A stretch of 64,000 nucleotides of DNA from Amoebophrya sp. A120 (taxonomy: Eukaryota > Protista > Dinoflagellata): the NCBI GenBank assembly GCA_905178155.1, contig CAJINV010000014.1:2265923-2329922 (forward strand). The letters run 5' to 3'. The stretch's first letter is position 1; every line of letters begins with the position of its first letter. Positions 15,993-56,906 of this stretch are shown one piece after another. The position numbers and the translations under genes are program-made. Below the pieces are notes generated by a model. The model was given only the letters and a program-made list of their open reading frames with translations. It was not told where the DNA came from and did not search any database.

Positions 15993-18900
15993 CAAGTTTT
16001 ACTTTGCAGTTGCTTTTTTTAAATTCGAAATCGCAAATCGTAGGTATTCCGACACGATCGTTGGCTACTCAACCGCGGAATTGTTGTATCAACCAGACAT
16101 CACAAGTTTACCCTTCGAATTTACACGCCGCACACTGCTTCGTTCGGTCCATAATATTTGACCACTAAATGTCGGGCTAGATCCGATTCAAGCCATTTAG
16201 CTGGTGACAAATACTAAAGCCGCTAGCTCGTAGTTCTTGGGTTCGGTCCAACCGGAGGTTGTCCTATAGTTCACAATATCCCCTTACCTTTAACCATAGT
16301 CAATTTTTGATAAAACCAAATTTCTTGTCCACTTTATCAGCCGTTTATGGGCCCCCCATTTCGGACAGGAAGGGGTTGAAAAAAGAAAAAACCTTTCTAT
16401 CTTTTAAAAATCGTCCGTGAAAATAGCACTTTTAGCAAGATGAACCATCAAAGTTTGTTGTACCACTGGACTTGTGCAGTTTCACTACTTCCTTGCAATA
16501 GAAGATGTTGCCCGCAGCAAAATTCGAGACAGTCAATGACCTGCGTCAAATCCTCCTGCTATTTTCACGATTTTTGGTTTATTTTTTCAAGGAATGGAGA
16601 TAGTAGTTGGATGGCCGCGCCGCAGCATCTTCACCTGCTGTTTCCGACTGCTTTCGCCGATTTACTTCTTAGATGCTTGTCGTAAACTGGTGCGCAGGAG
16701 AGCTGCGACGGCCAAAAAAATTTCGCTGTAGAAGTACTGTAGGTGCAAATCTCTAATGCTGTCGTCATCAACTAGTGGAGCAGGAGGCATCATCAACATC
16801 TTCAGGCGTGACATTCAACTCTTCATCTTCTTCGCTGCCGTCTTATTACCGACCAGCCGAGGCTCTCGCAGCCGCAGCCGGTACAGCTTTAATTTTACTG
16901 CATCTCGTGAGAAAACAAGTAGCAGCTACGATCATGATTGCGAGGCTGAAAAATGAGCACTAGCGAAAAAGTGCGGTTTCTTAACAAGCCGTGTGCGAAA
17001 TTTTTTGTGTCGCCATAATTTGTTTTGAGGCTGGATGGAGGTGAACCACGTAAAACAAGCCGAAGTAGGACGGGGCAAAAGTTTGGAAAAATTACTGTTG
17101 CCGGTGTAGTTGTTGGTCGGTACGTGTTATGACGGTATGCTGATTCAGTTCTTACAGCAGTTTCATGCTCCTTCTTGTTGTCTGTCAGTAAACCGAGAAA
17201 CTTTCGACCCCTAGTTCTAGTTCGTACTTTACCAAAGGCACATCAAGAATTATTTTTTTCCTACAATTTTGGAGTTTTTCTCCTCGAATGGTAGGAACTT
17301 TTTCAAGACTTCTGAGGAAAAAAAAGAGCCCCGGCCGACAACTACATTTACACACAGAAAAAACAAACTTTCGATACGACGAGCTTGTGCTCAGGGTTGA
17401 AATATTGCCCGCCACGATGTGCGAGTGCAACATTAAACATCTCGTCATCCGAGAAAGCCTACCCCGTTTTGCAACTATGTACACCACAGAAAGTGCGAGA
17501 GGTGGCGGTGAATACAACTAGTTTCTAGACAAAGAAGAAGCTCAGCATACGATCTCTTCTATCTCATATGGCTGTCCTCTGAGCTAGTTCCTTACAACCT
17601 CTTTTTTCGACAACTCTACACATCTACTCTGCATCTCGCGCACTTTCTTAATACATGAAAGCTCATGGCAAGAAAGATGCCTCTGTTTTTCCAGTGCATG
17701 TTGATGCTCGCCGTAATCAGTGTACTTATTATTCACAGCACGCTCATAATTGCAAGAAAAAAAGCTGGTGATCATCCTGCACTCTAAGAGTGCTCGATAG
17801 GATCGCACTTTGTCCTTTCGCGGCGGCGGCGGCGGCGGGGCCATCTTCGAGCTACTTAAAAAGATCATCATGGTGGCACGACTTACGAGGAGGATACGAT
17901 GCCTACGCACCACCAACGAAAGAGCGGCGCTACTTCTACAGGTCTTCGCAAAAAATGCTGGCGCTAGTACGAGAGTAGCATTGCTCAGCGATAACCGAAA
18001 AAAGGGGCCCAAGAAGACGAGGGCAATGTGCGCGCATCTGCGTAAAACGAGAATGAGTTATACTAGTACGAGTGGTGCGAAAATCGCTACAGAGCTGCTG
18101 CAACGCGGCGCGTCGAAAAAAAGTAGAAATTTCTGAACAGTCCCCTAGCGATGTCCTTTTCTTTACATTAAATTTTTCTATGTACTTCTTCATAGCTCTA
18201 TTTCTAATCTAACACGACTATGTATTTCTAGTTCTAAGATTTTCCCATTTACCTTACGTCGTTCTGACTTTTCTTTTCATCTATTACTCGATGTGGGAAA
18301 TTCAAGTCCACGACATCTCTTTAGTCAACATCTTCATGCACAAGCACAAAGGTAACATCCAAGAGTGTAGTCCATCGTCATCAACATGCCCGCTGTCAGC
18401 ACAAAGAAGTTCAGAATCCAACAACATAGTTGCAAAAATATTCATTACTGTCACCCGGCAAAAGCAGCTCGCGCCGTCCCGGTCCAGCAAAGCCGCGGTG
18501 GTGTTCTTCAGATGTGGAAGTAGACAATGCGCTTGTAGAACCGGAAAAAATAATTCGCCACAACAGGAGGAGCAGGAGGAGGAGCTCGGAGGACCACTTG
18601 TGGCAACATGTACATGACGAAGAACAGTAGATGGAGGAATGAATTCCGGTAGTATCCGCGGCCCGACTGTAGCTGTTTCCTCGATCAGTAACACTTCCTC
18701 GTGGCGATTGCGATGACGACCGAACTCGTGGCGAGTATGAGTGTAGTCGTCGAGGAGCAGCGGCTGGTCCACGACCAGGACGTTGCGGAACGGCAAGCGG
18801 CAAGGAAATTGGAGTTCGAGTTGGTCGAGTTATTATTTACTTGCAGAGTTCTTATTCATTTTCTTCTACCTTTTTTGACAACATCATCTGTAGCAGCGGT

Positions 18901-26427: not shown

Positions 26428-28574
26428 CTCGTCCAAGCGGTTTGGCTCGTCGTGGCAACGGATCCTCGCGTCCCACCGAGCAAACAGGTTGAGCTAGGTG
26501 ACGATGTAGTTGAAGGCGCGTAGACTGCAAATAAAATACTAATACACGATGACTAATATTGAAGCGAACTGAAACTAGATGATGCGAATTTATCTGGTAG
26601 TTGTGGATGATCCCCATAGTTTTTCTCTGCAATTTTCTGATTTTATTGCGATGTAGAAATTCTCTTGTATGATGTCGATGTGTAGTAATCCTCGACGACG
26701 ATGTGGCGGTAAGTGGAGCTGCAATTGTTGCGTTCCTGGTTTTGCATATGCGTTTTAACCCCAACACCGCCAGACGCTGCGCAAGAAGGCCGGCATGATA
26801 TTTCTCTCTCTTACCGACCATCCTACTGCTCACTCATAGACTGACACTGACATGACCGGACTCGTAAAACCTTCTTGCGCAGCCCGACGACACGAAAGTT
26901 AAAATCCATACTGCAAAAAGTCCTCCGGTGGAATGGTGATTCGTAATCGTATAGATGTTGTAGGTAGTTGCAAGCAAATGTGATCTTCGAGACGGGCAAA
27001 AAATTTTGCCGCTGAAGATATAGTTGTGGGAAGTATATCGAAGGCAAAAGAATATTCGTACATATCACGACAAATCAATTTGAAATGCCTACGATTTGTT
27101 ATGCCGAACAAAGCCCAAGCTGCGCGAGGTCGTCCACGAATGCATAGCAAATCCTGGCATTGCAAACTAATTGACTCAATGATAGACCATATTCCAAGTA
27201 CCTTATGCATAGGCGATAGTGAAGATGATGAAGATGATGATTTAGACTTTGATCATAGTAGATATTCTGCGTGCAGGGGGCAGCCGGTGCTGGCTCGGAA
27301 TGGTTTTCAGGAGCGCGGCTCGTAACGGGTGGAGTGGTTCGTCCGCCACACGTCACGTCCTCACTGGATCGAGAGCCGGCACAGCAGAACGTACTAGCAC
27401 AAGCCCAGATACAGGATCATGACTGCCAGTCCACAGTTTGCGGTGACGCTTATGGAAGGCAAGACGACACGGACCGTGAGATCAGTGCTTTGCGGTCAGT
27501 TGGCATGCGGAATAAAGGGTCAACAATTTTTAATATCAATGCGAATGATCATGCGAGGAATGGCGGGACGAAAATGGAAGATGGGAACGACAATCGTCCG
27601 CATGGCAACTGAATAAACCCGCAAAGATCACTGACGAGAGCGGACATTCGCAGGCCATAGTTTTGATGTTGTCGCGGCAGGGGCGGTAGGAAGAAATTAC
27701 TCACTTACTTGCAAAGCAACGCAGAAATACAAACTCAGTTCGTGCGGAAGGAAAAACTAAGTATGTTGTACTGGTGTAAATGACTGCAGAAAGATGAAGA
27801 TGTGATTATGACAAGCGTCTGGAGATGAAGAGGTCGTTTATTTTTTGTGTTGAATGCGAAAAGAAGATGAAGTAGATTGATCTAATTGTGCGAAGCTCGT
27901 GAATCTGCAATATGCCGCTGGAAGAACTGCAAGTTGAAGTTCTCGTCGATGAAAGTGGTGTGCTCGTCTCCGCAGCGGCCTTGATGAAAAAGAAGTTCGC
28001 GAATTTTCGTATACAGAGGACTTTTCCCAGATACTACTTGTTAGAACTGTGGGTGCTGCAAGCTCCATGAAGTACTTCTGCTCGTGTCGTGCAAGCTCGT
28101 GTAGCTACAACTGCTCGATGAATGTAGTTGGTCGGCTTTAACATCATGCTGCATCATCATCATGCTCTGGTGACCACTTCGGAAGAAAACAATCGTGATC
28201 GTGACAACTCCGAATAAAATGCAACTCCATGCTTCAGCTCTAGTGATGTCGAAGGAAATTACGTCGTGTTGATCATGTGCTGACACTTTTACGTCGTGCT
28301 CCTGGATGAAGGATTTACAGAAACCGGACGGAAATTGAAGAAAAACCCCTGGCAGATGATGTGATTTTTGAAGATGAAGATATTACGAAGATACCCGTTG
28401 TACCGCAGCAGGACTGGAAGGATGATGTTGAACTTGAAACCGGAACCGCAGGAAATACTGAAGCTCACGCTTGGTCGTGTCGGTATGGTTCTTGTTCTGC
28501 TCCAGGTCCTGGTCCTTTCACGACATGTAGTCCTGCACAATCTTCTGCTCTACAGCTGCTTCACCTCCTGTTCT

Positions 28575-29024: not shown

Positions 29025-30369
29025 GTTGATTTGTTGATCTGGCTCTTGATGTTCTGCTTTACTAGGTTTCTACTCTTACTTTTCTTGGAAAAGGACAACA
29101 AGATCAGCTCTAATAGCACGACTTCTGCTAACGGCCCTACTATTTTTGTTCTTCAAATGTGATTTGTGATGATACGTGAAAGCTTTACTTTATTAAAGGA
29201 TGGATGCGTAGCTCAAGATCAAGTCCTACACTTATCGCTCAAGAAAAACAAGAACAATACATGCAAGCACCGAAGATGAATTATGTCACTCAAACTCTGC
29301 TCAATCAAGCAAACAAACAAAAACTGAAGTAGCACCTGCAAAATATTAGTCTTCTACGGGGGTAGATATGCTTTGAACTATGGGGGACTACGGGGCTGCT
29401 GCTGTGATTGCATGAAAGAAACAATCAAATAGAAATACTTCTCTAGTAGCACTAGAACGTTACAGAAAAATCATGAGAATGAATGAGGACGAGGTAGGCC
29501 TGGACGTGACCTGTGCTGTGTCGAATAATACTACGGCATATTCATGCTGCACGTATTGAAAGAGTACTATATCTCGCTCATCTTCGACGGTGGACGAAAA
29601 AATTGCGCTCTTCTGGTCTTCGCTAGGGTGTACGTGCGTGTAAGTTTTTATATCTTCTCACCAGTACGTCGATAGCGATATCCGAGACTGTACATGTTTT
29701 TGTCGCGATTTCAGAAAAGTTCTTGTACGAACCGAGGTAATTCAAGCTTTTCTTGTCCTGCTCGTACTTCTCATCTCTAAGACCGACCTCCTTGTTTCTT
29801 TGACCTGTGTGTCCAGATGCGACCAGCCAAGAATTTCATCTCCAATTGTTGCAGTTCAAAAAAAAATTTGACAAAATTACCGAATGATCATAATAAATGC
29901 TGTATAGCTGTCTCTCTGTAGTGCTTGTGCTTCAACCTCATCTCGCTATACATAGATGTAGTTTCGAGGAAGTGGCCCATCGGCCTCATCTCTAGTTCAG
30001 AACAACAACCGCGTCAAACGAGCAGCTCCTCCATGAGGTCGTACTGACACTGCAACAGGCCTGAATGTAGCGCCTGTGCGAGGAGTGAGAGGACGAAAAG
30101 TAGAGAGAGCCTACAAATCTACTTCTACATGATAAAATTATCTTGGAACCCCTGCTTGAGTGAAACACAAAGACAGCTTCATTCGGATAAAATTGAAATT
30201 AATTCTGACGTATGAAGAGGAGAACAATGTCAGAGTCACTAACGCACGACGAGACTGCAAAACTAAAACTAAAGTAAAAATCCAAATTTTTCTATTTGAT
30301 CAATACGGTAGTGGCACAACACGCAGGAGTTGCTAAGGCTCGAGCGATCTAATTGTGTAGTGTTTTACT

Positions 30370-31964
30370 TTACTTTCTCAAAACTTTGAGAATATGCGAC
30401 TCGACCTCGTGCCCGGTCGCTGCGAGAAGATGGACATTGGCTTGAGGACCCAGGCTCGTAAGCGGATCTTCCTGATGTTTGTTCTTTGCAATCAACTCCT
30501 TCCAAGTCGTGTGCTCGAGGATCTCGAAACAGCACTGGTCTTCGTCGCTCCTGATCGCAGCCGTGGTCGTATTCTTGTGCTGTAGCTTGGTCGGGTCTGC
30601 ACCAGAGGACGGCCGCTGCACGACCGGGCTGGTCAGCAGCTGCTTCAGCCTCTGCACCTGAAACCCGCCATTGCTGCGCTCCTGCACGAGCAGGAAGGCA
30701 ATGCCGCCCGGTTTGGTCAGCCGTTTCTTCAGCACGGCGGCAAGCGGCTCCTCTTGGGACGGGAAATATAGACAGTCGGACGCAATCACGACGTCTGGGG
30801 ACGAAATTGTTCTTGTAGTACTAGAGATCGACTCTGACTCATCTGTGGTTCGTCCTGACGCGTCCGCAAACCGCGTTTCCAAGCGGTACGCGTTGGACCA
30901 ATGTCGCTGCTGCGTTCTTTGCACCTCGTGCTCTTCATCTTGCACGACATCGTCTTCCCAGAGGTGGTGGTAAAACTCGAAGTCGCAGTTTTTCTATCAA
31001 CGGGAAATACACTCGCGGGATCGCACTGTTGCAATAAGTGGTCGCCAATTTTGTATAATTGTGCACCATTTACAAAAGTTTTACTTACCGATAACGATAA
31101 GTACATGTCCAACATCCTAACGGCGTTGATGTGGATCGCTGGTGTAACTGCCTAGAGAGGCACTGGCACAACTTTTTTTGAAGATGATAATAAACACGAC
31201 GGCCACGCCTGCAACAGTGTGATTTACCGAGGAGCCGCTGATATACAACAGTTAGTGCCACGACCAGCACGGGATCTGCGCTCTGCTTCATCTTGTTCCT
31301 GGTCCATCTCCGGTTCCTCGTCCAAGAAGGCCACTTGCGCCGCCAATTTCGCCAAGGCCCGGTCGTCGCAATCCAGAAACATCACCTTGCTTGCACCGTG
31401 AGCCCCCGCGGCCAGCCCGGCGAGGCCGCACCCGCAGCCGATTTCCATGACCACTTTGCCTCTGACGTCCAGAAAACCGGTGGATATCAAGTACGCCGTC
31501 ATATAAGCCGACCGCCAAATCTTGGTCGCGATCGTGTCGCGCTCGTCGTTGTTGAGCAGCTCCAGCGTCTTGCCGCTAGCTGGGAAGTGAAAGCTGATAC
31601 AACCTTTGCGACTTGAGCTACAAGTTGTCACTTTCTTGATGCAGCCATCATCCTGCGTACTTGCTGCGCCCCGGCAGGAGTTGTTCTTGTTTTTTTCTGC
31701 TCCAATTCCAGCAGTAGTAGAATTATCGTGGTGATCCTCATCAAGATGAAGATCCTCGCCTGCACTTGTAGGAGTCGAGAAGAACGGTGTGGTGGAAGCC
31801 AGTGGACTTCTTCCCATCGAGCCTGACGTTGCACAGGTAGAAGTTGAAGATGCCATAGAGATAGGTGTACCAGCCGCTCGTCCTGTGGTGGCAAGCTCCT
31901 GGTCCTGCGAGGCAGCCGACGTATCGGAGAGCGCTGAAACAGGGTCGTGCTGCAATCGTCCCAT
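30370..31964 (-). CDS. SAM-dependent protein methyltransferase, Methyltransf_16 (METTL21-like) family; internal splice junction unresolved
   Basis: The 5' ORF has IWRSAY...VMEIGCGCGLAG...VMFLDCD (motif I and post-I). The 3' ORF has HHLWED and DVVIASDCLY (DxxY motif). The two parts are in different frames across about 30990-31250. Confidence 0.82.
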
Positions 31965-32121
31965 CGTTTCTGCTACTGCTGTGGAAGGTGGAAATGAATA
32001 GATATTGTTTTTAAGGTTCAGAATGAGAATTCCTTCGATCGGTACTAAAAGCTAATTACGCACAACGGCGAGTAGGAGTACAACATCTTCACTAATTGTT
32101 CTCAGTTTGTTCCCTGTCGTA

Positions 32122-32610
32122 TCAATTTGTACCTACACAGCCATTCTGCCCGGTTATAACTGGTAGATGTTGGCGTGTGCGATCGTCACCATCGCTGATA
32201 TTGATGCCAGTCTCGTCTCCATTGTCGTCGTCGCTGGTGGTATCTTCAAATAGATTCCAAATGATTTCGTTTTCCTCGTACAACTGGTACTGGAGTTGTA
32301 CTTTTTTTTCTTTACACAGAAAAGATCCCGTGACTTTTGACGGATTCGCCTCTTTATTCATATTTGCACGCGTTGTGCTGTCGGCTACTAGCTCTTCGTC
32401 TTCGCTCGTAGTTTTGGCTGTCGCGGTAGCAAGCATGTTGATCTTGGCCTTGCCCCCCGTCCTTCCGCACGCTTGTTTTCCTGGTGAACTTTGCTCTTGA
32501 TGCACCATCGTCGTTGCACCTCCGAACGGCGCTGGTCGTGCTTGTGGTCCTTGATTCATCGCGCAAGCGATGGCAACGGTGGACGAGTGGGCGGTGCTGC
32601 TGTTGCTCAT
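32122..32610 (-). CDS. Hypothetical protein (162 aa)
   Basis: ATG-initiated ORF co-oriented with neighbours and of similar composition; no recognisable domain. Confidence 0.4.
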   Translation of the reverse strand: MSNSSTAHSSTVAIACAMNQGPQARPAPFGGATTMVHQEQSSPGKQACGRTGGKAKINMLATATAKTTSEDEELVADSTTRANMNKEANPSKVTGSFLCKEKKVQLQYQLYEENEIIWNLFEDTTSDDDNGDETGINISDGDDRTRQHLPVITGQNGCVGTN

Positions 32611-33574
32611 TTGATGAGCCGCAGCTTACGGTACGAGCAGACAGAATAAAATTGCTCCTGAAACAGGCTCAATCAACAATCATCGCCTGCACCTAATGTT
32701 GTCGTGTCAGACTTACTCTTACAATAATTATGTGTACAGGAAGCTCGCCGCGGGAAAAAACTTTGGGCGGCGATTGCGGGTATAAAAAAATTAAAATGCT
32801 GTCCAACAAAACTGTTTTGACAGCGGGTTTGAAAAAAGAAGCAAGTAGTAGAGGAAGTCCCATTGTTCAAAAAATGTACAAACATTTCAGGCGACAAATA
32901 CTGACCAAGGATCCAGAACGACGTCGACCCAACTAACGTTGCGCGCTGCTGGTTGCGCGGACCTTCAGAGGTAGTTCGGGATCGCCTACTTACGGAGGTC
33001 GTCTCTCAACACATCTAAAGCAAGTCAGGCATCCTTGAGAAGATCCATTCGTACTAGCGCACCTGGATCATGATCCATTCAAATGCCTGAGAGAAGTGCC
33101 AAATCACAAGACGGCATAATGACGACGGACCTGAATTTCAAACCTAAAGTACACCAGGGACCGTATTGGAATAAACTTGTGGCCGCAACATACGCAACAT
33201 ATAACCCGCACGACCAGAAGATCGGAGTGATCATTTTTGTTCATCCATATGAGCTTGATCGTGGAGCACAGTTACAGTTATAATTTATCTGTTGCAAGAG
33301 CAAGAGCATTTCTTTTTTGTATCACTGTGGGCCGGACAGTCGTGCGCGTACTTTCTACGATCTTCTTGTTGCGATCAAGGTGATACACGCACAATCATGA
33401 TTCTGCGACGAGCAGGACGACAGCTCCATGATATATCATGATAGCACTAGCTCTAGGAATCGCCACGTTGAGCCTTTACTGGTTTTTGATTTGCGCAGAT
33501 GCAAACTGTCCTCTTCCCAAGAACAATGCATGATGACACCAAATAAAAAAAAAAAAGTATGCTGCTCCATGCTT

Positions 33575-36500
33575 CTACAGGTCTGGATTTGACGACTCCA
33601 TCAGGCCACTTGGCACGCTGCCCAGCATTGCATCACCTAGAATAAACTGCTGGTCCCCGAGGTTGTTGGAGTTGGTCGTGTCTGCTTCGCCCAATTTGTT
33701 GCGATACTGCGCCAACAGATCCGCGAACGAGGCCGACAAGCGATTCATCTCGATGGAAGAAGAGGTAGAAGAGGCAGATGATTCCGATCCACCTGCTGCC
33801 CCATTTCTGCTCGCACCGCTCGAAATAGATGTAGTTGCTCTACCGGGGGAAGAAGAGCTGCCAGCAGCCAAGCTGTTTCTCATTTCTTCCAGGTTTACAA
33901 AAGCGCTAGACGCTTCCTGCAGGGCCGTTTCCATCAGTAGCAACCGGCTGGAGTTGGAGGCGGTAGTGCTATTTGCCGTGGCCGTGCTCACCGCGGCCAG
34001 GGTGGGCGACAGGCCCTGCTGCAACGCACTGAAGGTAGAATTCAGCCCGGCTAGGGAAAGCAAGGAAGTACTTGCCACCGCGGTGGGGCTGCTCTGGGCA
34101 AATTCGGCGGACGTGGGCTCGTAATCCAGGGCCAACTGCGTCGCGGTTTTGGAATGAATGGGAAGATTTTTTGTTTTCTACACATTTATATTTTTTGATG
34201 AAAGACATAGTTAGACATCATCTGGAGAGACAAGCACGTAGGTAGACAAAAATCGATTTTCAAAAAAACGAACCTGCTCCGGCTGCGGCATCTCGAAGAC
34301 GAGCTTCTGTGCCCCGACTTCCTGCAGAGTGTAGAGCCATTTGAGCAGTAGCGTTTGCTTGGAATTGTTGTACTGCATGGTGTCTGCACCCGTCACAAAC
34401 GCATCTCCGAGCTGCTCCGTATCATACTGAATCAGAATCGCCTGGGCCACCTTCTGCAGCAGTGTCATCTCGGCATTGCGCAACGCTGCATGAAGCAGCC
34501 GATCGCGCTCGACCTAACGATCATTTGTCATTATACGTGATTCTTGTCATGTAGTGGTCAGTAGCCAACCCAATGATCATGCGATGTCGCCATAAATGCA
34601 AGTGAGTATCAATCTTGTTCGGTACTATCGCAATTTCATTCAACACAGTCACAGTCAGCTGTAGCTGTACTCAAGAATAAACACGACAGCAATTTATTTC
34701 CTTTATTTTTACCTTCGCCACTTCCACCTTCGTCAGAGCGTCTATTTCAGCCGTTTTGCGTATGCATGCGAAATTCTGACTATCACTTTTTCGCGACCGG
34801 CCTTCAAACTTCTAGAGCGACTGGTACAACTTTGATCATGCAGCAGATGCTCGATCGTGATGGATACTTTTCAACGACGAGTATGAGGCAGACGCAAACT
34901 ACCTTGCTCATGCATCGTGACATCAAAGAACTACTACATCGGGACGTCGAAACCTTGCAGGAGTGTAGAATATGGATGCTGTACGCCAGTCTACATACTG
35001 GTGCTCCTGTCCCTGTCGAATTTATTGGATTGCAAAGATCTCATGCGCATGCCAACTACGAGGAAGAACATCTCGACAGATAAAGAATTTCCGCATGGAT
35101 ATCTTTGGCGAAAATCGCGGCTTCTTTGGCCTGTCGTGCCAGTTCCGTGTCTTGGATGGCCGATTCCAGGCCCGTGGGCAGCTGCACCGCGACCAGCGAC
35201 ACCCGGTGCGTGGTGCAGTTCAGCGGCAGCAGAGAGGTCGTCACGCGCTGCTGCATCAACTGGCCGATGATCTCCCGTTTGGTGTAAAATTCCAACGCGT
35301 TGTGCTGGGACACCTCCGTGCGAATGGCCGCGGCAATGGACGCCTGCACCAGCCCCCGCCAGTTCTCGTCCCCGGTAGTTTCGAACAACCCAAACAGGGT
35401 CTCCTTCAGCTTATGGCGTTCTCAGCTGTTACACTCTCAACTGTTAAGTACATGGATTTGTGATGCTAAAACAACTGCAAGAATGGGAAACGTGAAAGGG
35501 AGGAGATTGCGCCTGTAGCATTACAAATTCCGCACAGATTTAGGCGCTGTTTGGCCCTAGGCAGATTTGTCGTGCGAAGCAGCTTGATCGCGTGGATGAT
35601 GTTGGTGCTTTTGCATGACAAATTCATGTAACAGTTGAGAATGTAACGTTTGAGAACCCCATACAGCTGGTCGCTCACTTGCGGAGCGTCGGACTTGTCG
35701 CCCAACGTGTTGTCGCGGCCGAGCCCCAGGGAGATGCCGGCAGCCGCTTCCACCTGGATGATCAAACCCTCGTACGACCGGCAGGGAAGGGTTTGCGCCT
35801 TGACCACAAAGTTTTTGCCCACCAAATCCGCGTCTTCGGCGGGCATTTGGCCCGCCAGACAGGGCGTGCAATCCTCGGCGCCGGTTTCGCACTCGTCTGC
35901 AAGGTCGCAATCTTCTTCCTCGGTGCCGCCTAGAACGTGTGGGAGGGAAAGCGAACGTGTTGGAGTTGCCAATCAATGCAGCAGCAAGAAAGGCCTCTGA
36001 AGAAGGCATTTTTCGCGCTTCATTACACTACAACTTTTGAACCTTACCTTTCGTAGAAAAAGCGCGGTGCTTGCCCACTTATCAAGATTATTACCTCCGT
36101 ATTCATTTTGGATGAAATAAAGCACAACACTTCCGCTTCCACTTCGATACAGGCCTGCTCTCGTCCATGAAGCTGAAAATCCTCGTATCAAACCAAAAAT
36201 GTGGCAACGACATTTTTTTGTCGTGGTCGTGGTTTCAGTATCACGACGAGGATATCGTCCACTGCTATAATTCTGCATGAGATGAAGCTGGTGCATCATG
36301 TCGTTCACGGCTAGCACCACAAATTCATCTGCAAAAAATGCCACCAGATTTTTGGCTGATACATTCGATTCGCGGGAAACTTCTTCCATTCGTGGCCGAG
36401 ACCTGTGATGAGGTGTAAACATAAAATGTGTTTGGCGCCATTTGTGTGGAATTTGCCATCGCCGATATAGCCAGCAAAAAGCATTTTCCCATTGGTGCAA

Positions 36501-36705
36501 TTATTCTTCTACCGAGAAAGTGTCTCCCTCCCTGCGCGACGCTGTCTTTGTAGATCTGCCTCGAATTCAGGTTGTACTCGATCCCCAGTTCTAGAGGTTC
36601 CAACACCGCAAAGGAGCAAGCGAACAGAATGATCGCAATGTTGAGCAAGCAGCAAAACCCGCCCGTCTTGATGGCGAAGAAGCACATCTCATCGTCGTCC
36701 ACCAT
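33575..36705 (-). CDS. SPFH / Band-7 domain membrane protein, about 8 exons
   Basis: N-terminal TM segment, then LEPLELGIEYN...GGRHFLG|LGHEWKKFPANRM|IFSF...CRSYEGLIIQVE...AIRTEVSQHNALEFYTKREIIG...VQLPTGLESAIQDTE and a coiled coil. GT-AG introns at 36403-36512, 34514-34712, 34136-34273. Introner introns at 36186, 35412, 34761. One uncertain junction near 35933-36149. Confidence 0.85.
34761..35101. mobile_element. Introner-like element / non-canonical intron (341 bp) with decayed TSD
   Basis: TIR TATGCATGCGAAATTCT vs TATCCATGCGGAAATTCT. Flanks on the coding strand are AAAGA and CGCAA, with only the last base shared. Removing element plus 5 nt gives IFAKE|TAEIDALTKVEVAK. Confidence 0.78.
35412..35663. 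mobile_element. Introner-like element / non-canonical intron (252 bp)
   Basis: About 35-bp TIR (TATGGCGTTCTCAGCTGTTACACTCTCAACTGTTA vs TATGGGGTTCTCAAACGTTACATTCTCAACTGTTA), perfect TSD CAGCT. Junction SDQL|KETLFGLF. Confidence 0.92.
35938..36149. mobile_element. Candidate degenerate introner intron (212 bp)
   Basis: Ends match 18/25 ungapped as an inverted repeat, with one terminus TGT instead of TAT and no TSD. Removing element plus 5 nt restores the SPFH frame. Confidence 0.45.
36186..36361. mobile_element. Introner-like element (176 bp) with canonical GT-AG boundaries
   Basis: TIR TATCAAACCAAAAATGTGG vs TATCAGCCAAAAATCTGG. Coding-strand flanks GAATG and CGAGG. Intron 36362-36182 reads GTATC...CGAG and restores FPANRM|IFSF. 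Confidence 0.85.
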
Positions 36706-37681
36706 GTTGGGCGGTTTTTGTGGAGCTGCTGGGCCTCCTCAAACCAACTCAAAGTCCTCGTGCTGATTGTACGAGAGTGCAAGAGTACGAGGTCCTGCTC
36801 GTGCTCGGAAGATTTCGCGGCTGTGAATGTCCTCCTGTCTTTATCCTTACACGTTATCGTTGATACGCGGCAAGAACCCGGACGAGTAGTGTGTGTGTGT
36901 GAGAAGGAAAGCGGCTCTGGATTAAAAAAATCCGACGGTTCTTGACGAAGCAGACCAACACCAACTATGGTGGGCAACAAGGTGCAACATAGACAAGTTG
37001 TAGTTGCATCGCAGTTGTGCACGATGCTGCGCGAAACAACGGAGAAGTATCTTGTTTGGTCTGCAGACTCACTCTTTCCCCTAGAAATTTTCCTGGCCTA
37101 GTTGTATCTCGAAGTAAGATGGTCGTGCTTCTTGTTTCGTACAAAAAGAGTTTTAGTTCGTTGAAAACAGCGTGAGGCTACAGCATAAAAGAAACCCAGC
37201 GCCGAATGGTTAATACAGAAACGGATGCTAGCGACGATGAATGAGGTGCTTCTACAACTTTTGTCTCTTATACCGTATTAATAGGTTGCCGAAGGTGCTG
37301 CGTCTGGGCCGCGCATGCTGTTTTCATTGCTAAACCTCCTGCCTATGTTTTTTTAGGCGAACAACGCAGAGCGAACTGGCAACTTCTGGTGCTGGTGACA
37401 AGTTGTGGAAACAGCGGACACTACCACCCAGACACAGAGACAGACTGACTGCATAGTCCAAAGCGATTCATTTTCATCTCATGAAATTAAATGCGAAACG
37501 GAAACGGTTGGAAGTTTGTCAATCATACAGATGCCTACGTGTCATCATCATCAACACGAATATTCATCGCAACAACGAACTCTTCCCACGAGCCGCTGCC
37601 GACATTGCGTTCATGAATGTGAGTTATAATTTTGTCAATGCCGGCTCCTACGTGCTACCAGTTACATTCACATCATCTGCC

Positions 37682-39485
37682 TCACCCCGCCGGCGTCGCG
37701 GTGGCCGCACTTGGTGCTTCGGGCATGATGTACTCCATGAGCCACTTTGGCGGAAAAGACTCGTACACCAGTCGCAAGAACCTCGTCAGCGTACCCGGGC
37801 CTGAATCGGGGAGCAACGGTTTCACGGGGTTTTCCAGCACAGGGTTGAGCCAGGTCGTTTTCTCACATAACGTCTCCGGGATCACGCTGAAAGATGTTCA
37901 CGTACACTTCTAAGGATGACAAACAGACTTTGAAGACAGACTTTGCCCTTCTCATGCATGGTCATGTTCATGCGCCATCATAACTGAACGATGAAGAAGA
38001 AGAACAAGCGAGGAAAAGTAAAAGCAGTGATGCGAATGTTTTACCCTCCCGACGCCTCTTCCACGTTTTCCAGCACGTAAGTCTTGGCTTCCTCCTCCGT
38101 CATCCCCCGCGACGCCACCAGACTGTCAATCGCGGCCTGCAGTTCCGGCTTGATTTCCTTCTTGTCGGTCCCGCTGACGCCGTTCAGCTGCTTGATAGTC
38201 ACCTCTATGGATGTGTCAGGATCGAAATCAACAAAATCGAAATAATTTGTGATGCATAAGATCGATACCAGTTGGAGCCTCAGTTTCCAAGTGGTGCATG
38301 ACAAATTTCGGGAGCACCAAAGTCCAGCCTGTCATGCTGTTTCGGCAAAGAAGACTGCTCCTGTCATGCTTCTCTGGAAGCGCATCGTCTTCCCTAAACA
38401 GGCTGGCAATCGGTCTCATTTGCCTGCTCCCCAATACAGGCCATATGTGCCCTACATTTTATGCATTACAAATTTTTCGACTCTGTCGATTTCGATCCTG
38501 ACACATCCATAACCTCCGCGTGGGAAATAAACTCCCCGTAGTCGTTCCCCACCGGCTGACAGGAATTCGCGCAGAACTCGTTTTATCAAATGTAAAAGTG
38601 TCTGGGTCTGAAAGATTGCGAGATTTGTCATGCTTGTCTAGGATGACCAAAAAGTTTGTGATGCGTGTCCAAGAAGAGACCCTTTTGCCTGTCATGCAAA
38701 AACGCAGTTTGTCATGCGAAAAACGCAACACAAAGAAGCGCAGATATTTCTCATGCTTGGCTGTGCATTACAGAGCATTTACAATTCCCAACGCAGCATT
38801 ACAAGTTTTCAGACCCAGACATTTTTACATTTGATACGTTTAACGTGATCTGCTTGGAAATGGGGAAGTTGATCCCCACCTGCAAGGCCAACGCCGGCTC
38901 GATGGTGCAGTACGGCCGTAGCGGGTCGGACACCTGGCAGCTCAGCGACTCCGCTTTGAACCGACACTCCATGCGCGTCTCGCCGTCAAAGGTCGGAATC
39001 GACTCACCGCGACAGCAATCGGCGCAGCGACAAAAGGGAAAAGAATTCAAGTCAACCGTTTCCATCAGGAAGGTTTTTGCCGCGACGTTTTGGATTGGTC
39101 GTGTGAGGAGTAATGGACTTAGAGAGGCGAGAAAACTACAAAAGGAGTAGGAGTAGCTTGATCGTGGATGTACAGCTCTTGTTTTCTGGTAGTTTTTATC
39201 CTGATGCTGATCTGATCGTCTCGCAAGACCCTGGGTTTTGCTCCGCACTCCTCGGACGTCTCCATTTTTGTGAAGCGTCGACTTCAGCAGGCGCCGATCG
39301 AAGCCGAAACTGCAAGAGGCACTGCAGGTCGCCGAGACATGCCGACGTGTTCTTCGCAACGCGCCTGCAGCTAGTACGCGTCCTCGTCTACTAATCGAGG
39401 TGCCTGCACATGTCGACGGCGAGCTCTTGGAGGACAACATGGTAACTATTGTTTTTGATGTTCGCTCAGTCCCTATCATGGTCAT
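37682..39485 (-). CDS. Cys-rich (CxCxxCC...FCxxxC) protein, probably secreted or membrane-targeted; 4 exons
   Basis: Reconstruction ...CRCADCC...QITLN|EFCANSCQPVG...HAEV|TIKQLNG...EASGG|VIPETLC. Two introners (38584, 38206) and a GT-AG intron at 37887-38044. Start and extreme 3' end uncertain. Confidence 0.75.
38206..38511. mobile_element. Introner-like element (306 bp), family C
   Basis: Perfect 24-bp TIR TATGGATGTGTCAGGATCGAAATC, perfect TSD ACCTC. Homologous to the reverse complement of 54510-54817. Confidence 0.93.
38584..38836. mobile_element. Introner-like element / non-canonical intron (253 bp), family B
   Basis: TIR TATCAAATGTAAAA(G/A)TGTCTGGGTCTGAAA, perfect TSD CGTTT. Homologous to the reverse complement of 52715-52962. 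Confidence 0.93.
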
Positions 39486-40078: not shown

Positions 40079-41202
40079 TCAACGCCGAAACCCAAACGCT
40101 TCCGCCGCGTACGTCACAGCATCGTTGTAGTCCGGTGCTTTCAGTCCCGTGTGCTGCAGTTCGTTAACCTCTTGCGCGTCCTCATTGTTGATGCACGTGG
40201 CCTGCGGGGTGGCTCCGCCGTTGCCGGGAGAAACTAAGAATGGAGGAAACGAGGTTATCATTTGAACATCAAAAGCTATGCACGTCACACGAACGCATCT
40301 TCGAATATGAGCAACATGAAGAGTTCATCAGTTTCTAGAAGACGAAAAGCAAGCTGAAGAAGCTTCTTGAACAAGCTAATCGAGCCGATGCTAGCAAAAA
40401 TCTTCGCTCGCAACGATTTCTAAGCATATACCACTGCCTCCCTCGATGTAGGCATTGTTCAACCGCGTCCGCTATCCTGAGTAAAAACGTCCCCACGCCA
40501 GAGTTGTAATGCAGATTTCGAAAGACAGGAAGACTTGTAATGCGCATACCCATGAGAGCCATTTCTACTCGTGTTTTGGAACTTGTGATGCTGTGAACAG
40601 GATGAGCAGATGAATCTGTGATGCGGCTGCACTTGCTAACCTGCACTACAGCACAGCAGAGCGCAACTTGTCATGCGTGACTCACAAAACTCCTAGGTTT
40701 GTGTTGCAAAATCCCCATCCTGACTCTGGCGTGGGTACGTTTTTACTCAGGATATCCGCTGCGCGTTCGACGTTCCGCCAGCGGCCGGCACGCTGCAGTA
40801 GCTGGCGCAGTACTGGTCGTAGTCCGTGGCCGTTGTGGTCGCCCAGGACCCCGCGCTCACTTCGGTGCAAGTGGCCTGTTGGCACTGACCGGTCGGCTCC
40901 CCGTCTTCGTTGTTCGCCTGGTCTAAAGTGGTCAAATTGATCCGGCGACAAGTCAACTTCCGGTGCACTTCGGTCACGATGCAGCACCCGCAACTGCACC
41001 CATCCTGCGCGATGTCGTAGATCTCATTGGCAAAAATGTTCCTCGTCTTCTGCAGTTTCTTCTGCGCTCTACTTGCCGCGCGGTGTAGGGAGAGGTGCTG
41101 CTGCAAATTGACAGCGGTCACAGCTACCGGGAAATGAGCAGCGAGGTGGGAAGATACCAGATGAACCAGAACCATCCGCCAGATGAGGCGAAAAGGAGAC
41201 AT
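40079..41202 (-). CDS. Secreted Cys-rich protein (CSCGCC...YCASYC), 3 exons
   Basis: Signal-peptide-like MSPFRLIWRMVLVHLVSSHLAAHFPVAVTA. Introner at 40473-40754 and GT-AG intron at 40234-40431. Junctions NAQR|TRLNNAYIEGGS|VSPGNGG are in frame. Confidence 0.78.
40473..40754. mobile_element. Introner-like element / non-canonical intron (282 bp)
   Basis: Near-perfect 32-bp TIR TATCCTGAGTAAAAACGT(C/A)CCCACGCCAGAGT, perfect TSD TCCGC, several internal TTGTNATGC. Confidence 0.93.
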
Positions 41203-47156: not shown

Positions 47157-47540
47157 TCTGATTTCTTTTTTTGCGAACTATGTAGATATTATGATGTGCC
47201 TGATTTATTCGATCAGAAACCTTTCATTCGGTGTCGTTTCACTTTCACCAGGCTGCGGAAAAAAAAAGCCTGTCTTCACAAACATTAACTTAGTACACTT
47301 GCAATTCTACTACAACTACATCGCTCAAGGATAATAATCACAATACGAATACCCTTCAAAAGTACCCGCGATTTTTTTTTGTACACTCTACTTCTTGAAA
47401 CAGTTGGCAATATAATAATCGTAGTAATATTTGAAGCTGGAGATGCATTTGGATCGGGATCGGGAATGAAATTGAAAAGAAAAAGCGGATCGTAGAAAAA
47501 ATAAAATAATTAACTACTTCAAAGTAAAACACAAAAACTA

Positions 47541-47595
47541 CTCCAACAAAAATAAGGTCAGCATTACAGTAATGCTGACCTTATTTTTGTTGGAG
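47541..47595. repeat. Perfect palindrome, 27-bp arms, 1-nt loop
   Basis: CTCCAACAAAAATAAGGTCAGCATTAC-A-GTAATGCTGACCTTATTTTTGTTGGAG. Confidence 0.95.
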
Positions 47596-47655
47596 AAGAT
47601 CATACATGCAAGCAATGCTAGTAATTTACTAGCATTGCTTGCATGTATGATCTTC
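47595..47655. repeat. Perfect palindrome, 30-bp arms, 1-nt loop
   Basis: GAAGATCATACATGCAAGCAATGCTAGTAA-T-TTACTAGCATTGCTTGCATGTATGATCTTC. Confidence 0.95.
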
Positions 47656-48175
47656 ATCATCTGATATATCGAACGAACTGTGTACTTACCATCCACAGCC
47701 TCTCTTCCTCTTGCAGAGCTTTGCATTGTTTCACGCGTGGGATCCAACTAGTGACTGAAATAGCGCCACGCAAATTTACAATAAGGCTTTCCGTGGCATC
47801 CCTACGTGAAGAACAGTCAGTGAGCGTAAGCATGATCAATTTCCTGGCGCAATTGAAACAGGCGTCGACTTTTGCTTTTCTAATGTTTGCATAATTTTAT
47901 AGTTGAGTCGTGTCACCAGAATTTTGATTTTCAAACTGCTCATAGATGTTTTTTGATACACTTGCGCAAAAGGTCTTGGTGGGTGCTAGCGAATGACTCC
48001 GGTGCTATAACTTTGCTTGGTGCTACTGCGTGGTCTGCGTATTTTTCAACTCTTCAATTCAGTGAAAGCATTGTAGTACTAGGAGCCTCCAGCTACAAGA
48101 GTTTATTCGGAAGTTTTGTCTTGCGAGGAGAATCATCATGCTCGTTCTTCTATCTTCTTGTTCTTCTTCACTTTC

Positions 48176-51842: not shown

Positions 51843-54800
51843 TCACGCCCCCATCACCAGCTGCGCTTTCGGGAAGATCCTCTCCACAAATCCCGCGTCC
51901 GCCTTCGACAGTTTCGAGTTTTTTTCGTCGTTGGACTTCAGCAACTTCTTCTGCAACTCCGCGTCACCGCTGGCCGCTGACAGCACCTGCGCGCAAAACC
52001 TGGCGACGTTGGACACCGAGTAGCAAATCGCGTTCGAGGAGCCAGGCGGGTTGGTCAGGCACGTGTGGTTAATGAGACCGTCCGGGGGGCAGGAGACTAC
52101 CGGGAACTTCGAGTGGAACGAAGCGGTTCCCGACAACGCGTCCGTACCTCCAGCGCAACCAACAATGATACAGGGCTGCTCCGAACGATTGTAGCTGAGA
52201 GAGGTTTTATTGCAGATGTTAAATGCTATCATGGAGTTCAACTTCATCTTGTAAAATAAAAATTGTATAGGCGAAATGCGTAGTGTCTACGTACATACTC
52301 TAGAACTAGAAAATTCAAACACGCAACACAACAAAACGAAGCACGGACTGAGTGAATAACATGAACATTTTCAGAAGGTGGAGCAGCTGCCGCTGCATAG
52401 AAGGCATTCATACATACTCATACTACCTTTTCAAAGCATCTTCCAACTTGCCCGGCTGTTTGTGCGCCGAGCAAATCCGGGTGTGCACCGCCTTGAGGCC
52501 CTGCTTCTTGCAGCTCTCCTCGATTTTCGCCAAATGGGGCGCGTCGGAATCCGATCCCGCCATGATCAGCACGACGCCGGTGCTCAACAGCTTCGCCGCC
52601 TGGAGGTTCTTGATGACCCGCTTGGCCGACGCGTTGCTGCTGCCGGTGATACTGGATGCGAACAAATCAAAGGGGAACTCCTTCCCAATGATCGTTTCGT
52701 AGACCTTGATGTACTATCAAATGCAAATATGTCTGACTTGTGATGCAAGTCAGTGAACAATAAGTGAACTGTCATGCGCAGCCAAGCATGACAAGTTTTT
52801 TCGTGCTTCTGTGATGCGCATTCCGCATGAGAAAGTGCGTTTTTGCATGACAGGCGAGAGAGGCTGTTCGTGGCCAGCACGCAATACAGAGTGCAGAGTC
52901 ATGCCAGACTAGCATGACAAAACCTTGCAATCTTCCAGACCCAGACATATCTGCAGTTGATATGTACCGGTAGCTGCACTCCACGATCTGGGCCGGGGAC
53001 AAACTGATTTCTATGACAGTGCACAACTCCCCCTCCCCGTCATTTGTCATGCAAAATACCAAATCCAGACTGTGTTTCTTAGCACTGTTTGCATGACAAA
53101 CTCCGGAAGCCCAAACAGCACTACACTCCTGTGGAAATAATTTGTCATGGAAAACCGGCATTCTTACTGACCCTTGTATTGCTTTTGCTGTTCATGCTAT
53201 ACAAATGAGGGGAAGGAGGAGTTGTGCACTGTCATAATTTCGTCCGCGGATTCATTCCCCGTGAACCCCATGTCGAGCAGGCAGTCGCGCACGTACTGTT
53301 TGCTGTATTCTTTGATTTTGTACTTGCTGAAAATCTCACTCGCCGGCATGGTCTTTCCCTTCACCGCTTCGTCGATCAATTTCCATTTCTTCTCGTACTC
53401 TTCAATGCCGCATATGCAACGGAAATTTCAATTTATTCATTCCGTGCACGTACTAATGCTATTTCATCCGCAACATGGCACCACTTTTATCTTTTTCGTA
53501 TGCAGCATACGAAAAAGATAAAAGTGGCATCGCATGCTTTAGGTTCGGAAAATTTGCATCTGCCGTGCATTTGTACGTGTGGGGTGAAATAAAATTGAAA
53601 TTTCTATTGCATACCGCACATCCGAGAGCTATCCGGCGTGTTCACTTCGTCAATCACATACAATTCGTTTGTCTCGTAGTCCAAACCGAATTCGTACTTC
53701 GTGTCGATCAGAATCAGCCCCTTTTCTTTCATCTTCTCGGATCTATCCTGTGCAAAAGTATCGTACTCGTACTAATTGCCATTATGCATGACAAATCTTG
53801 TCCTTAAGGTAAAACAGCATGACAAATTCCAGCTCTCACGCTGAGCAAATTTGTAATGCAATTTATACTAGTACGATACTTTTGCAACGCATAGGATCCG
53901 CGCTGGAACAATTTCATCGAGATGTCCTTCACTTTTGCGGCCAAATCCACTCCGATCAATTGTTCCACCTCGGCCATGGTCATGTTCTCGTCGTGCCCCA
54001 CCTCCGCCTTCGTGGTCGGCGTGAAGATCGGCTCGGCGAGTTTCTGGTAGCGGACCAGCCCGTCTGGAATCTTCAACCCGCAGAAGTCCCGATCCCCCTT
54101 CTCGTACGCCTTCGCCATGGAACCCCAGAGATAGCCGCGGACGATGCACTCCACCATCAGATTCTTCATTTTCTTCTGCACGACGACCGCCGGGTCGGGG
54201 GCGGGGGTGATGAGCGCGTTGGGGATGATGTCCTTGGTCGCGTCGAACGCCCATTCGGAGATCTTGTTCAACACGAACCCCTTAAAGGGGATCAAATTGG
54301 GCAGCACGTGGTCGATATCCTGTGCAAAAGTATCGTACTAGTATAAATTGCATGACAAATTCTGGCAAGAAGGAAAGTCAAATTTGTAATGCTGTTTTGC
54401 CCTAGGAAAAATATTTGTCATGCATATCTGCAATTAGTACGAGTACGATACTTTTGCACAGGATAGTCGAACGCAGAAACCCGGTCGTTGGTCACCATCA
54501 CCACGCTCTTATGGGGGTGTCAGGATTGAAATCGTCAAAAAATGGTTTGTCATGCACAAAATGCAATACAAAAAGTGACTCTATTGCAGAGGACGCACGG
54601 GAGGCAGATTATAGTCCTGGTAAGGGTCTTTCAAAAGTTGGACGGCTGACTAGCATGACAGAAGGTAGCTCTTTTGCCCTAAACTGCGTGACAGACTCGC
54701 TTCCAGGACCGGGAAAATTTGCCATGCACCGACTACAAACTGTGGGTCTAACTGGTATCCGTTTGATGCATGGCAAATCATTTCAACTTTGACGATTTCA

Positions 54801-56906
54801 AACCTGACACGTCCATAGTTCTCGTTCTGGAAGTAGATGTCCCGCACCTTTCCCTTCTTCGCCTCGCCCCACTCCGGGATAAACACCGCGTCCACTTCCG
54901 TTTTGTTCAGAAATTCGCTGTGGATCTTTTGCTTGTAGAGGGTTTCTTTATCCTTGATAGTACCATCGCCGTCTTTGTCGCTCGTCGTTTCCTTCGAGGT
55001 CGCGGCGGTGGAGGTGAAAAAATCGTTGTCCACCGCTTTCGTGCACGACACAGAGGGTTTCACATCCGAAACAGCAGTACTGCCCGTGGCGAACACCGGA
55101 CACAGGCGCGCATCCGCGTCTTCCAAGGACTTCACCTTTTTCGCGTTTTCGCTGCTCAAAAACTCCCCGATCTTCGGCTCCTTGCCGGAGAACATCTGCA
55201 GGCAAAACCGCGCGCAGTTTCCCGGCTTGCCGCAGAAGGCGTTGCTGCTGCCCGGCGGGTTGATCGTGCAGGTTTTGTTTTCCAGCCCGTCCGGGGGACA
55301 GGACACCACCGGCCAGATGGACAGGAAGGACGCGGTTCCGGACAAGGCGTCGGTACCGCCGGCACAGGCGATGATGCAGATCATCTGGTCGGTATCCAGG
55401 AAAAAACACCCATCGCCATCCCCATCCATGTTTTGCATGACAAACACTGGAGCTGATGCATGTTTTGCATGACAAATTGGATGGGGACGATGTGTTTCTG
55501 TTTTTTTTTTTTTGTGGATAGTCGGAGGTATTGTAGTACTTCAACACCTCGCCGAGCTTCTTCGGCTGCTTGTGCGCGGAACAAATCCGCACCTGCGTGG
55601 AGATGTTGTGCTTCGCGAACGATTTCGCGAACTCCTTCTGCAGTTTCTCGATGTGCGGCGCGTCCGAGTCGGACCCGGCAAAGATGCAGGCGAGGCCAGA
55701 CGAGAGGTACTTTTTCGCGACCAAATTCTGCAACAGCCGCTCCTTGGGCGACTTGTTGATCACCTGCGCCTTGTCCGGTAACGGGAACTTCTTGCCCGTG
55801 ATCTGCTCGCAGACGTCGATGTAGCGCTTCGCGCACTCCAGCACCTGCTCCGGCGTCAATTCGATCGCCTTGGTGGCGGTGGTAGGGTCGAATCCCATTT
55901 CCAACAGCGTGTCCCGGACGTACTGCTTCGAGAACTCCTTCACCTTCAACTTCGGATGTTCCTTCAGCAAGGCGGACACAGAGGGGTAGTCCTTGATCTT
56001 CGGTTCGATCAGCTTCCACTTCTCCTCGTACTCCGCAATGCTGCACAGACGGCTGCTGTCCGGCGTGTTCACTTCGTCGATCACGTGCAGCTTGCCGGTC
56101 TTGGGGCAAATCCCAAACTCGTACTTCGTGTCGATCAAAATCAGCCCCTGCTTCGCCATCGTCTCCTGGCCGCGCTTGAACAGCTTCATCGAGATGTCTT
56201 TGACCTGATGTAGTTTTTGCGCCATGTACTTCTAACAGCGACTTCTTGTTGATGCAGTTGTAGGTAGGACCACGTAGTCAGAGCCGACTTGTTATTTCTT
56301 TTTCGAAATTCCTAAACTCCTGCTTTATCATTTTACATCGTAGGATGACAAAATCTTGAGCATCGTGTGCTCCGTAGTTCCTACCTGCGCCGCCAAATCC
56401 TTCCCGATCAGCTCCTCCACTTCCGCCATGGTCATGTTCTCGTCGTGCCCCACCTCCGCCTTCGTGGTCGGCGTGAAGATCGGCTCGGCTAATTTCTGAT
56501 ACCGCACCAGCCCGTCCGGGATTTTCAACCCGCAGAAGTCCCGATCCCCCTTCTCGTACGCAGCCGCCATGGAACCCCAGAGATAGCCACGGACGATGCA
56601 CTCCACCATCAGATTTTTCATCTTCTTCTGCACGACGACCGCCGGGTCGGGCGAGGGGAGAACGAGGGCGTTGGGGATGATGTCCTTGGTCACCTCGAAC
56701 ATGTGCTCGGAAATGGTGTTCAGCACCTGGCCCTTGAACGGGATCAGATTCGGAAGGACAAAATCGAACGCGGACACACGGTCGTTGGTAACCATGACAA
56801 CGTCATCCTCCTGGAAATAAATGTCGCGGACCTTGCCTTTCTTCGGAAAACCCCACTCTGGCAACACCACGGCGTCGAGGCCGTAGTTTAGGAAAGACGC
56901 ATCCAT
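51843..56906 (-). CDS. PAICS: Tandemly duplicated SAICAR synthetase / AIR carboxylase fusion (PurC-PurE-PurC-PurE, ~1068 aa), 10 exons
   Basis: PurC motifs [66 protein letters not shown] and PurE motifs GSDSD, SAHK, PVVSCPP each occur twice. Exons approx. 56906-56385, 56204-55521, 55387-54818, 54504-54466, 54310-53894, 53738-53614, 53407-53237, 53006-52963, 52709-52427, 52194-51843 sum to 3207 nt. Two GT-AG introns (56205-56384, 52195-52426) and seven introners. Confidence 0.95.
52715..52962. mobile_element. Introner-like element / non-canonical intron (248 bp), family B
   Basis: TIR TATCAA(A/C)TGCA(A/G)ATATGTCTG, perfect TSD TGTAC. Junction CSYRY|IKVYET. Confidence 0.93.
53012..53236. mobile_element. 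Introner-like element / non-canonical intron (225 bp)
   Basis: TIR TATGACAGTGCACAACTCC with further similarity inwards, perfect TSD ATTTC. Junction SADEI|SLSPAQ. Confidence 0.93.
53413..53613. mobile_element. Introner-like element / non-canonical intron (201 bp)
   Basis: TIR TATGCAA(CG/TA)GAAATTTCAATTT, perfect TSD CCGCA. Junction DSSRMCG|IEEYE. Confidence 0.93.
53744..53893. mobile_element. Introner-like element / non-canonical intron (150 bp), family D
   Basis: TIR core TGCAAAAGTATCGTACT, perfect TSD GGATC. Junction FQRGS|[10 protein letters not shown]. Reverse-complement homolog of 54316-54465. Confidence 0.94.
54316..54465. mobile_element. Introner-like element / non-canonical intron (150 bp), family D
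   Basis: Perfect 24-bp TIR TATCCTGTGCAAAAGTATCGTACT, perfect TSD GTCGA. Junction VSAFD|HVLPNLIPF. Confidence 0.95.
54510..54817. mobile_element. Introner-like element / non-canonical intron (308 bp), family C
   Basis: About 30-bp TIR TATGG(GG/AC)GTGTCAGG(A/T)TTGAAATCGTCAAA, TSD GCTCT/GTTCT (4/5). Junction YFQNEN|VVMVTNDR. Confidence 0.92.
55393..55520. mobile_element. Introner-like element / non-canonical intron (128 bp), family A
   Basis: TATCCA...TGGATA ends, perfect TSD GTCGG. Junction YYNTSD|[11 protein letters not shown]. Confidence 0.93.

Follow-up and report, generated by a model that had tools for sequence, protein, structure and literature searches.

Splice register of TAT...ATA introners in Amoebophrya sp. 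A120 and a possible hairpin ruler for their 3' splice site

Introners of the window and their host genes

The stretch of DNA analysed here (the window) covers 64,000 nt of Amoebophrya sp. A120, and all genes inspected in it lie on the minus strand. It harbors 21 tabulated introner elements, 20 of which display TAT...ATA ends and one TAT...ACA ends (35938-36149). Fifteen elements are bordered by a perfect 5-nt TSD and six by an imperfect one. A previous inspection of the bare sequence (the sequence-only reading) had counted three imperfect TSDs, at elements 36186-36361, 54510-54817, and 34761-35101. Their sequences are as it described, as are the end dinucleotides it listed for the remaining elements, and three further elements, 26747-26910, 30995-31243, and 35938-36149, join the imperfect set. 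The TIRs of all six match each other well above shuffled sequence (z 4.2-9.5), with z values of 5.7, 9.5, and 5.0 for those at 36186, 54510, and 34761. In a library of 327 elements, the one at 54510 has 26 matches; those at 36186, 34761, 30995, 35938, and 26747 have none, and would accordingly be singletons or old. Given their A120 host, TAT-starting TIRs, direct repeats of 3-5 nt at the borders, and removal from transcripts, the window elements are the TAT...ATA introners of Amoebophrya A120 published by Farhat et al. 2021 (PMC7789003), the available text of which lists TAT-starting inverted repeats, a run of A, 5-nt direct repeats, and non-canonical ends.

Two window exons match the A120 proteins P0001 and P0121 at 100%. 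P0121 (560 aa) is encoded by an SPFH/band-7 domain gene (33245-37099, minus strand) whose introns are canonical in three cases and of the introner type in four. Read as one base, the element, and four more bases (the 4+1 register, see below), the introner-type introns are the following, all on the minus strand. The intron at 36182-36362 consists of G, the introner 36361-36186 (176 nt), and CGAG, with GT..AG ends and TSD copies GAATG/CGAGG. The decayed introner intron at 35934-36150, GTAT...ACA-CGTT, contains element 35938-36149 (TSD GCCTG/CGTTC) and has GT..TT ends. Introner 35663-35412, with the perfect TSD AGCTG, gives an intron at 35408-35664 with GT..CT ends. The intron at 34757-35102 is made of A, the introner 35101-34761 (341 nt), and CGCA; its ends are AT..CA and its TSD copies, AAAGA/CGCAA, share one of five bases.

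P0001 (52300-56900; 1068 aa) is composed of two tandem PurC-PurE units (SAICAR-synthetase/AIR-carboxylase), a doubling also found in A25. Six introners are located in the second unit of its gene; the first unit has one close to its end, and the first PurC domain has none. The second SAICAR-synthetase domain is interrupted by the intron at 54506-54818 (minus strand), formed by C, the introner 54817-54510 (308 nt), and AGAG, with CT..AG ends and TSD copies AGAAC/AGAGC. Two further minus-strand elements have imperfect TSDs. The intron at 30991-31255, in a gene for a Methyltransf_16 protein, spans the decayed introner 31243-30995 (TSD TTGTA/GAAAA, TIR z 4.8). Introner 26910-26747 (TIR z 7.7) predicts an intron at 26743-26911 with GT..CA ends; its TSD copies, TGCAG/TGCAA, differ at base 5 only.

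Other features have been recorded along the window. A canonical intron at 31976-32132 possesses two acceptors 3 nt apart, skipping 154 and 157 nt. A 59-nt TAT...ATA hairpin at 16155-16213 (flanks TTTAG/TTATG, TIR z 3.6) lies beyond evident coding sequence; possibly an element with an internal deletion, it is kept out of the element counts. The AT-rich adjacent inverted repeats at 47538-47668, with 1-nt spacers, are dissimilar to introners. The elements at 38584-38836 and 40473-40754 belong to very high-copy families, with summed contig depths of ~500,000 and ~400,000 in run X5, in which single-copy DNA stands at ~45, and the TIR of the 38584 element is also present in run X8, a run otherwise devoid of window matches. 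An internal palindrome, TTTGTCATGCA/TGCATGACAAA, recurs in many families at a distance of ~45-60 nt from the element ends (e.g., 53042-53107 and 54380-54430); it contains ATGAC and is a candidate transposase or branch-site signal. Two matches from a viral scan of the window have been discarded as AT-rich chance.

Transcript junctions and the splice register

Contigs of four runs from a single sample (X1-X4) were aligned to positions 29950-37200 at 98% likeness. Five skipped GT-AG junctions and a poly-A stretch at the end of one contig are the grounds for treating them as transcripts; their RNA nature is a guess, and contigs, being assembled, lose minor isoforms. The five element junctions of this region are all skipped in all four runs, at identical positions. 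At 36180|36362 and 34755|35102, 181 and 346 nt are skipped, respectively, each with one ambiguous base. The upstream TSD copy is kept in the mRNA at both, hence their register is 4+1 or 5+0, and the translated mRNA reads R-M-I-F at the former and A-K-E-T at the latter, as does annotated P0121. At 35933|36151, 217 nt are skipped with one ambiguous base, which allows 4+1 or 3+2, and at 30990|31256, 265 nt are skipped, again with one ambiguous base, which places the 3' end at ATA+4 or +3. The fifth junction, 35406|35664, removes the element plus five bases (257 nt) and, owing to its perfect TSD, has five ambiguous bases and is compatible with any register. In runs X8 and X9, which carry the same species label, only element ends are matched, with zero junctions, and the joint table of run X5 (DNA-like) is flooded by copies from other loci.

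The sole register common to these allowed sets is 4+1, N-TAT...ATA-NNNN|exon, which is very probably the splice register of A120 introners. Its basis is four informative junctions in two genes, with contigs from one sample, and 5+0 is excluded through two decayed elements only, one without ATA and one whose displaced donor gives an out-of-frame join. For all four informative junctions the TIR match is maximal at offset 4. The ends of element 35938 keep an ungapped TIR remnant of 18/25 at this offset, as against at most 11 at 13 other offsets (z 4.2-4.3), whereas a TIR remnant is absent from four of the five canonical introns (z -1.2 to 1.7), the remaining one reaching z 2.4.

The intron at 30991-31255 departs from this geometry at its 5' end, which has moved 11 nt upstream of the 4+1 donor, to CTAACT; the acceptor has not moved, and the shifted donor at 31255 again reads N-T-A. 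By breaking the reading frame, the 265-nt join would introduce an early stop and truncate the Methyltransf_16 protein. Both halves of the methyltransferase are found in one continuous ORF in the homologue P0246. An in-frame 254-nt form may also be made, as minor forms are dropped from contigs. The insertion is common to a related strain, since P0242, which comes from another source and is 91% identical, also reads into this element. The mis-splicing possibly reflects gene decay or a regulated unproductive form.

This displaced donor would also fit splice sites whose place in the TSD varies between elements, with no single register and an agreement on 4+1 by luck. Each junction taken singly permits two registers, and the Fig. 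3 legend of PMC7789003 presents the intron border relative to the hairpin as variable and unknown. Four two-way constraints nevertheless converge on one register, the 3' end stayed at +4/+3 though the donor moved, and the nine predominant A120 motifs given in Table S4 of PMC7789003 all carry T at +2. Sliding sites are very unlikely on this evidence.

Under the 4+1 register, neither matching TSD copies nor GT/AG ends are required for removal. Exactly the element plus five bases is lost at three introns with three or four of the five TSD bases mismatched, from which it follows that TSD identity is dispensable. The AT-CA and GT-TT junctions observed do not require the GT/AG ends of canonical U2 introns. 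The GT-TT intron (35934-36150) ends in TT, and a CTAG four bases further on stays in the exon, unused; the AT-CA intron (34757-35102) ends in CA, and its join likewise ignores an in-frame AG located 15 nt downstream. An AG at 34741 is ruled out as the 3' site of the latter, since 346 and not 361 nt are skipped. Likewise, a 4-nt microexon within 36150-35934 is ruled out by contiguous contig coordinates, with CTAG unaccompanied by other letters.

The sequence-only reading had proposed the same register, with R-M-I-F at 36180-36366 and E-N-V-V at 54505-54822 as its predicted products. The register holds, as 4+1 alone is shared by the four RNA junctions, and R-M-I-F is found in both the RNA contigs and P0121. 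At 54506-54818, P0001, as given by the transcript-guided annotation, does read ENVV, the A25 orthologue has DDNVI, and the paralogous domain in the window has EDDVV. The annotation, the N of A25, and the D of the paralogue all appear to favor the upstream AAC, a weaker line of evidence than RNA junctions because the annotation pipeline may prefer AG. The argument by which the register had been reached is invalid. It started from TSD mismatches falling at positions 1-4 only, which is correct for the three elements then considered (chance of a shared base 5 in all three, p ~0.064) and incorrect overall, base 5 being identical in four of the six imperfect TSDs and different in two (26747-26910 and 35938-36149). 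In any register, each of the five TSD positions is represented once in the exon and once in the intron and can therefore accumulate mismatches, which leaves RNA junctions as the only means of fixing the register. The upstream base 5, which 4+1 assigns to the intron, does mutate. An invariant +2T, +3A, +4T had also been proposed, which fails at +4: among ten altered 5' TAT ends, the change is at +4 in eight, at +3 in one, and at +2 in one.

AG at the 3' end and the fate of ageing introners

The GT..AG ends at 36362-36182 and the CT..AG ends at 54818-54506 noted by the sequence-only reading are present, and both AGs arise through TSD mismatches. They had been taken as a sign that ageing introners, spliced in the 4+1 register, drift towards AG and may turn into ordinary spliceosomal introns, a reading under which selection would bring in AG (and G at +1). 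In this register, one of the 21 window elements reads GT-AG, and AG is found at the intron 3' end in 2/6 imperfect versus 1/15 perfect TSDs (Fisher p 0.18); the probability of two or more in six, at a flank rate of 8.1%, is 0.08.

A larger sample comes from a metagenome assembly that is an inferred relative. A TIR pattern scan of metagenome contigs yielded at least 135 loci; those listed all belong to this one assembly and make up 527 kb once merged. Window families and the elements of this assembly share 70-95% identity, and the best protein match of an RPB1 exon from it is at 87%, with the A120 RPB1 not among the matches. A codon model trained on the window assigned a coding strand to 354 of 409 element candidates. 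After leaving out the 55 candidates whose strand call was absent or contradictory and a further 23 with 0-2 TSD matches, many of them internal repeats or cross pairs, 331 elements were kept, 270 with a perfect TSD and 61 with 3-4/5 matching bases, a set in which the oldest elements are under-sampled. Some elements (merged M008, M012, and others) display duplications of 7-8 nt, or shifted ones, instead of 5 nt.

In this assembly, AG occupies TSD positions 3-4 in 22/270 perfect TSDs, equal to the 8.1% of flanking sequence, and all 16 dinucleotides are found there. Neither this rate nor the 1/15 of the window amounts to the AG enrichment at the 3'-site TSD position typical of Aureococcus/Polarella introners, which co-opt one splice site from a TSD AG. 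Among the 61 imperfect TSDs, mismatches number 15, 21, 12, 12, and 18 at positions 1-5 (uniform, p 0.42). The downstream copy has AG in three of them and the upstream copy in seven, with one gain and five losses. The enrichment of AG in mismatched TSDs that the sequence-only reading had expected is therefore not seen (3/61 imperfect versus 22/270 perfect). The sole imperfect TSD of the related RPB1 gene sits within another intron, and counts were accordingly repeated on elements with open coding flanks, yielding AG in 2/40 imperfect (95% interval 0.6-17%) versus 16/181 perfect TSDs. The expected rise of AG with TIR decay is not borne out either in the related assembly, with no trend by TIR score (5/86, 12/126, 8/119) or by nearest-copy identity. 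A relaxed scan for very old elements (16/25 TIR matches) returned mostly false pairs and no AG peak at TSD positions 3-4, and was not used. In a codon-model test of the mismatches, the result at positions 1-4 has no power (18/40), and at position 5 the upstream copy scores better in 8/11, leaning against 4+1.

Published A120 data are more favorable to drift. In the available text of PMC7789003, inverted and direct repeats are reported in 15% of canonical and 30% (or 68% introner-like) of non-canonical A120 introns. The implied GT-AG share of introner introns is 11-21%, versus 2.6-4.8% expected from the TSD composition of the related assembly, and CT-AG is ~2.4x over-represented relative to three non-AG motifs in Table S4 of PMC7789003. 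Thus, the published genome-wide counts possibly leave some AG excess. A weak hint of G gain at +1 comes from 12 single position-5 mismatches (7 vs 1, p 0.07) and from both window cases; it fades in wider sets (9:4 and 5:2). HISAT2 favors canonical splice ends. The junctions of PMC7789003 were mapped with this program, and the AG excess may stem from its preference; because of this origin, mapping bias, selection at insertion, and drift are indistinguishable in those counts. The most decayed RNA-defined intron, moreover, is GT-TT with a neighboring CTAG left unused. Taken with the single gain against five losses, this makes drift towards canonical AG unlikely, and A120 introner introns seem to persist as non-canonical introns.

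A probable ruler from the terminal hairpin, and known systems

GT-AG ends are absent from more than 60% of A120 introns, and no U1 snRNA has been detected; how such introns are spliced is left open by PMC7789003 and a 2024 review, as far as their available text goes. At the four informative junctions, introners are removed as N + element + NNNN, and their 3' site is probably set by its distance from the foot of the terminal hairpin, not read from AG. In such a scheme, a MITE-like element would insert and create a 5-nt TSD, base 5 of which would become intron position +1. Either TIR would supply +2T and +3A, a partial donor, and pairing of the TIRs would draw the intron ends together. A tolerant U2-type spliceosome would then cut 4 nt beyond the stem. 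The GT-AG and CT-AG cases at 36186 and 54510 would mostly be chance, the outcome of TSD sequence and of neutral change in the intronic TSD copy.

The geometry is seen at the four junctions; that the stem serves as a ruler and a spliceosome does the cutting is our inference. In the related assembly, large families occur in both orientations (25:18, 17:11, 13:10, and 12:7) and the two element ends do not differ over 16 positions, which implies a splicing signal as symmetric as a TIR. The 5' TAT is changed at +2/+3 in 2/10 cases, versus 5/9 at the paired 3' positions (p 0.17), and 3' ATA changes are found at every position. The hairpin fold of the 36186 intron has z -4.9 relative to shuffles; the decayed intron at 35934-36150 keeps its terminal stem, with a whole fold like that of shuffles (z -0.96).

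The lack of strand asymmetry at the element ends would equally suit a hairpin-reading machinery distinct from the spliceosome, of the kind suspected for euglenid nonconventional introns, the likeness of N-TA to a GT-A donor being incidental. Register and ruler would be the same and the catalyst alone would differ. The dispensable AG and the U1 snRNA not found in A120 according to PMC7789003 point in this direction, and YTRAC-like words show a modest excess only, near the 3' end. However, the available text of PMC7789003 reports nearly all spliceosomal proteins, U2AF, and the U2, U4, U5, and U6 snRNAs in A120, and +2T +3A agrees with canonical donors and is retained in the shifted donor. A non-spliceosomal catalyst is accordingly quite unlikely.

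With the spliceosome as the preferred catalyst, we regard as evenly balanced whether A120 follows a second code for splicing, N-TA(T)...(A)TA-NNNN|exon, under which a spliceosome lacking U1 applies a fixed 4-nt ruler from the stem and has no need of AG, TSD pairing, or a given orientation. If so, any MITE insertion would be a working intron, so that tens of thousands of non-canonical introns would be explained without conversion to GT-AG. A 3' choice measured by structure and independent of AG would be unusual spliceosome behavior. In practice, the fixed register offers a simple rule for intron ends seemingly without signal, usable to correct gene models.

The splice register of these known elements is newly pinned here, along with a likely hairpin ruler for their 3' site. 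PMC7789003 leaves the A120 border variable or unknown in its available text, whereas mismatched TSDs pin it here to 4+1 and make TSD identity and AG dispensable. A literature search, together with the available parts of PMC7789003 (whose Figs S19-S25 may draw a border), PMC12130899, and PMC12005148, yielded no mention of a fixed register of A120 introners.

The closest geometry is that of ILE class 12 (NNAGG) of Polarella glacialis (bioRxiv 10.1101/2020.10.14.339549), in which a 5-nt TSD is cut after base 4 at the 3' site and the donor is made of TSD base 5 and the first base of the element, as in 4+1. Class 12, however, depends on a TSD with AG and G and on a single orientation, as described in the available text; for Symbiodinium, the same text reports that boundaries convert with age, away from GA. 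Amoebophrya-type elements, in contrast, accept any TSD and both orientations. Fungal introner-like elements are reportedly GT-AG from birth and decay internally into regular introns. The drift tested in A120 differs from this in needing an AG gain, which was not seen.

The nonconventional introns of Euglena follow the code N3CDG...CH'G N5-6|R, and their conversion to conventional introns has been proposed and found rare (PMC12501133; PMC4770533, in their available text). They share with A120 introners paired terminal motifs at a fixed distance from the splice sites and the absence of GT-AG, and differ by their motif and unrelated lineage; they also reportedly leave as circles. In place of a CAG/CTG pair with N3 and N5-6 spacers, the window pair is TAT/ATA, with A120 spacers of 1 and 4 nt. 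A120 introners thus work like Euglena nonconventional introns and are not members of them.

The MITE introns of Fritillaria borealis also combine TIRs and TSDs with a U2-type spliceosome and no 3' AG. In contrast to A120, their ends are mostly AG-AC or AG-AT and divergent U2AF paralogues are implicated (PMC11282704; PMC13326754, in their available text). The 3' dinucleotides of A120 look unconstrained. If the hairpin ruler is true, A120 would represent a third independent case, next to euglenids and Fritillaria.
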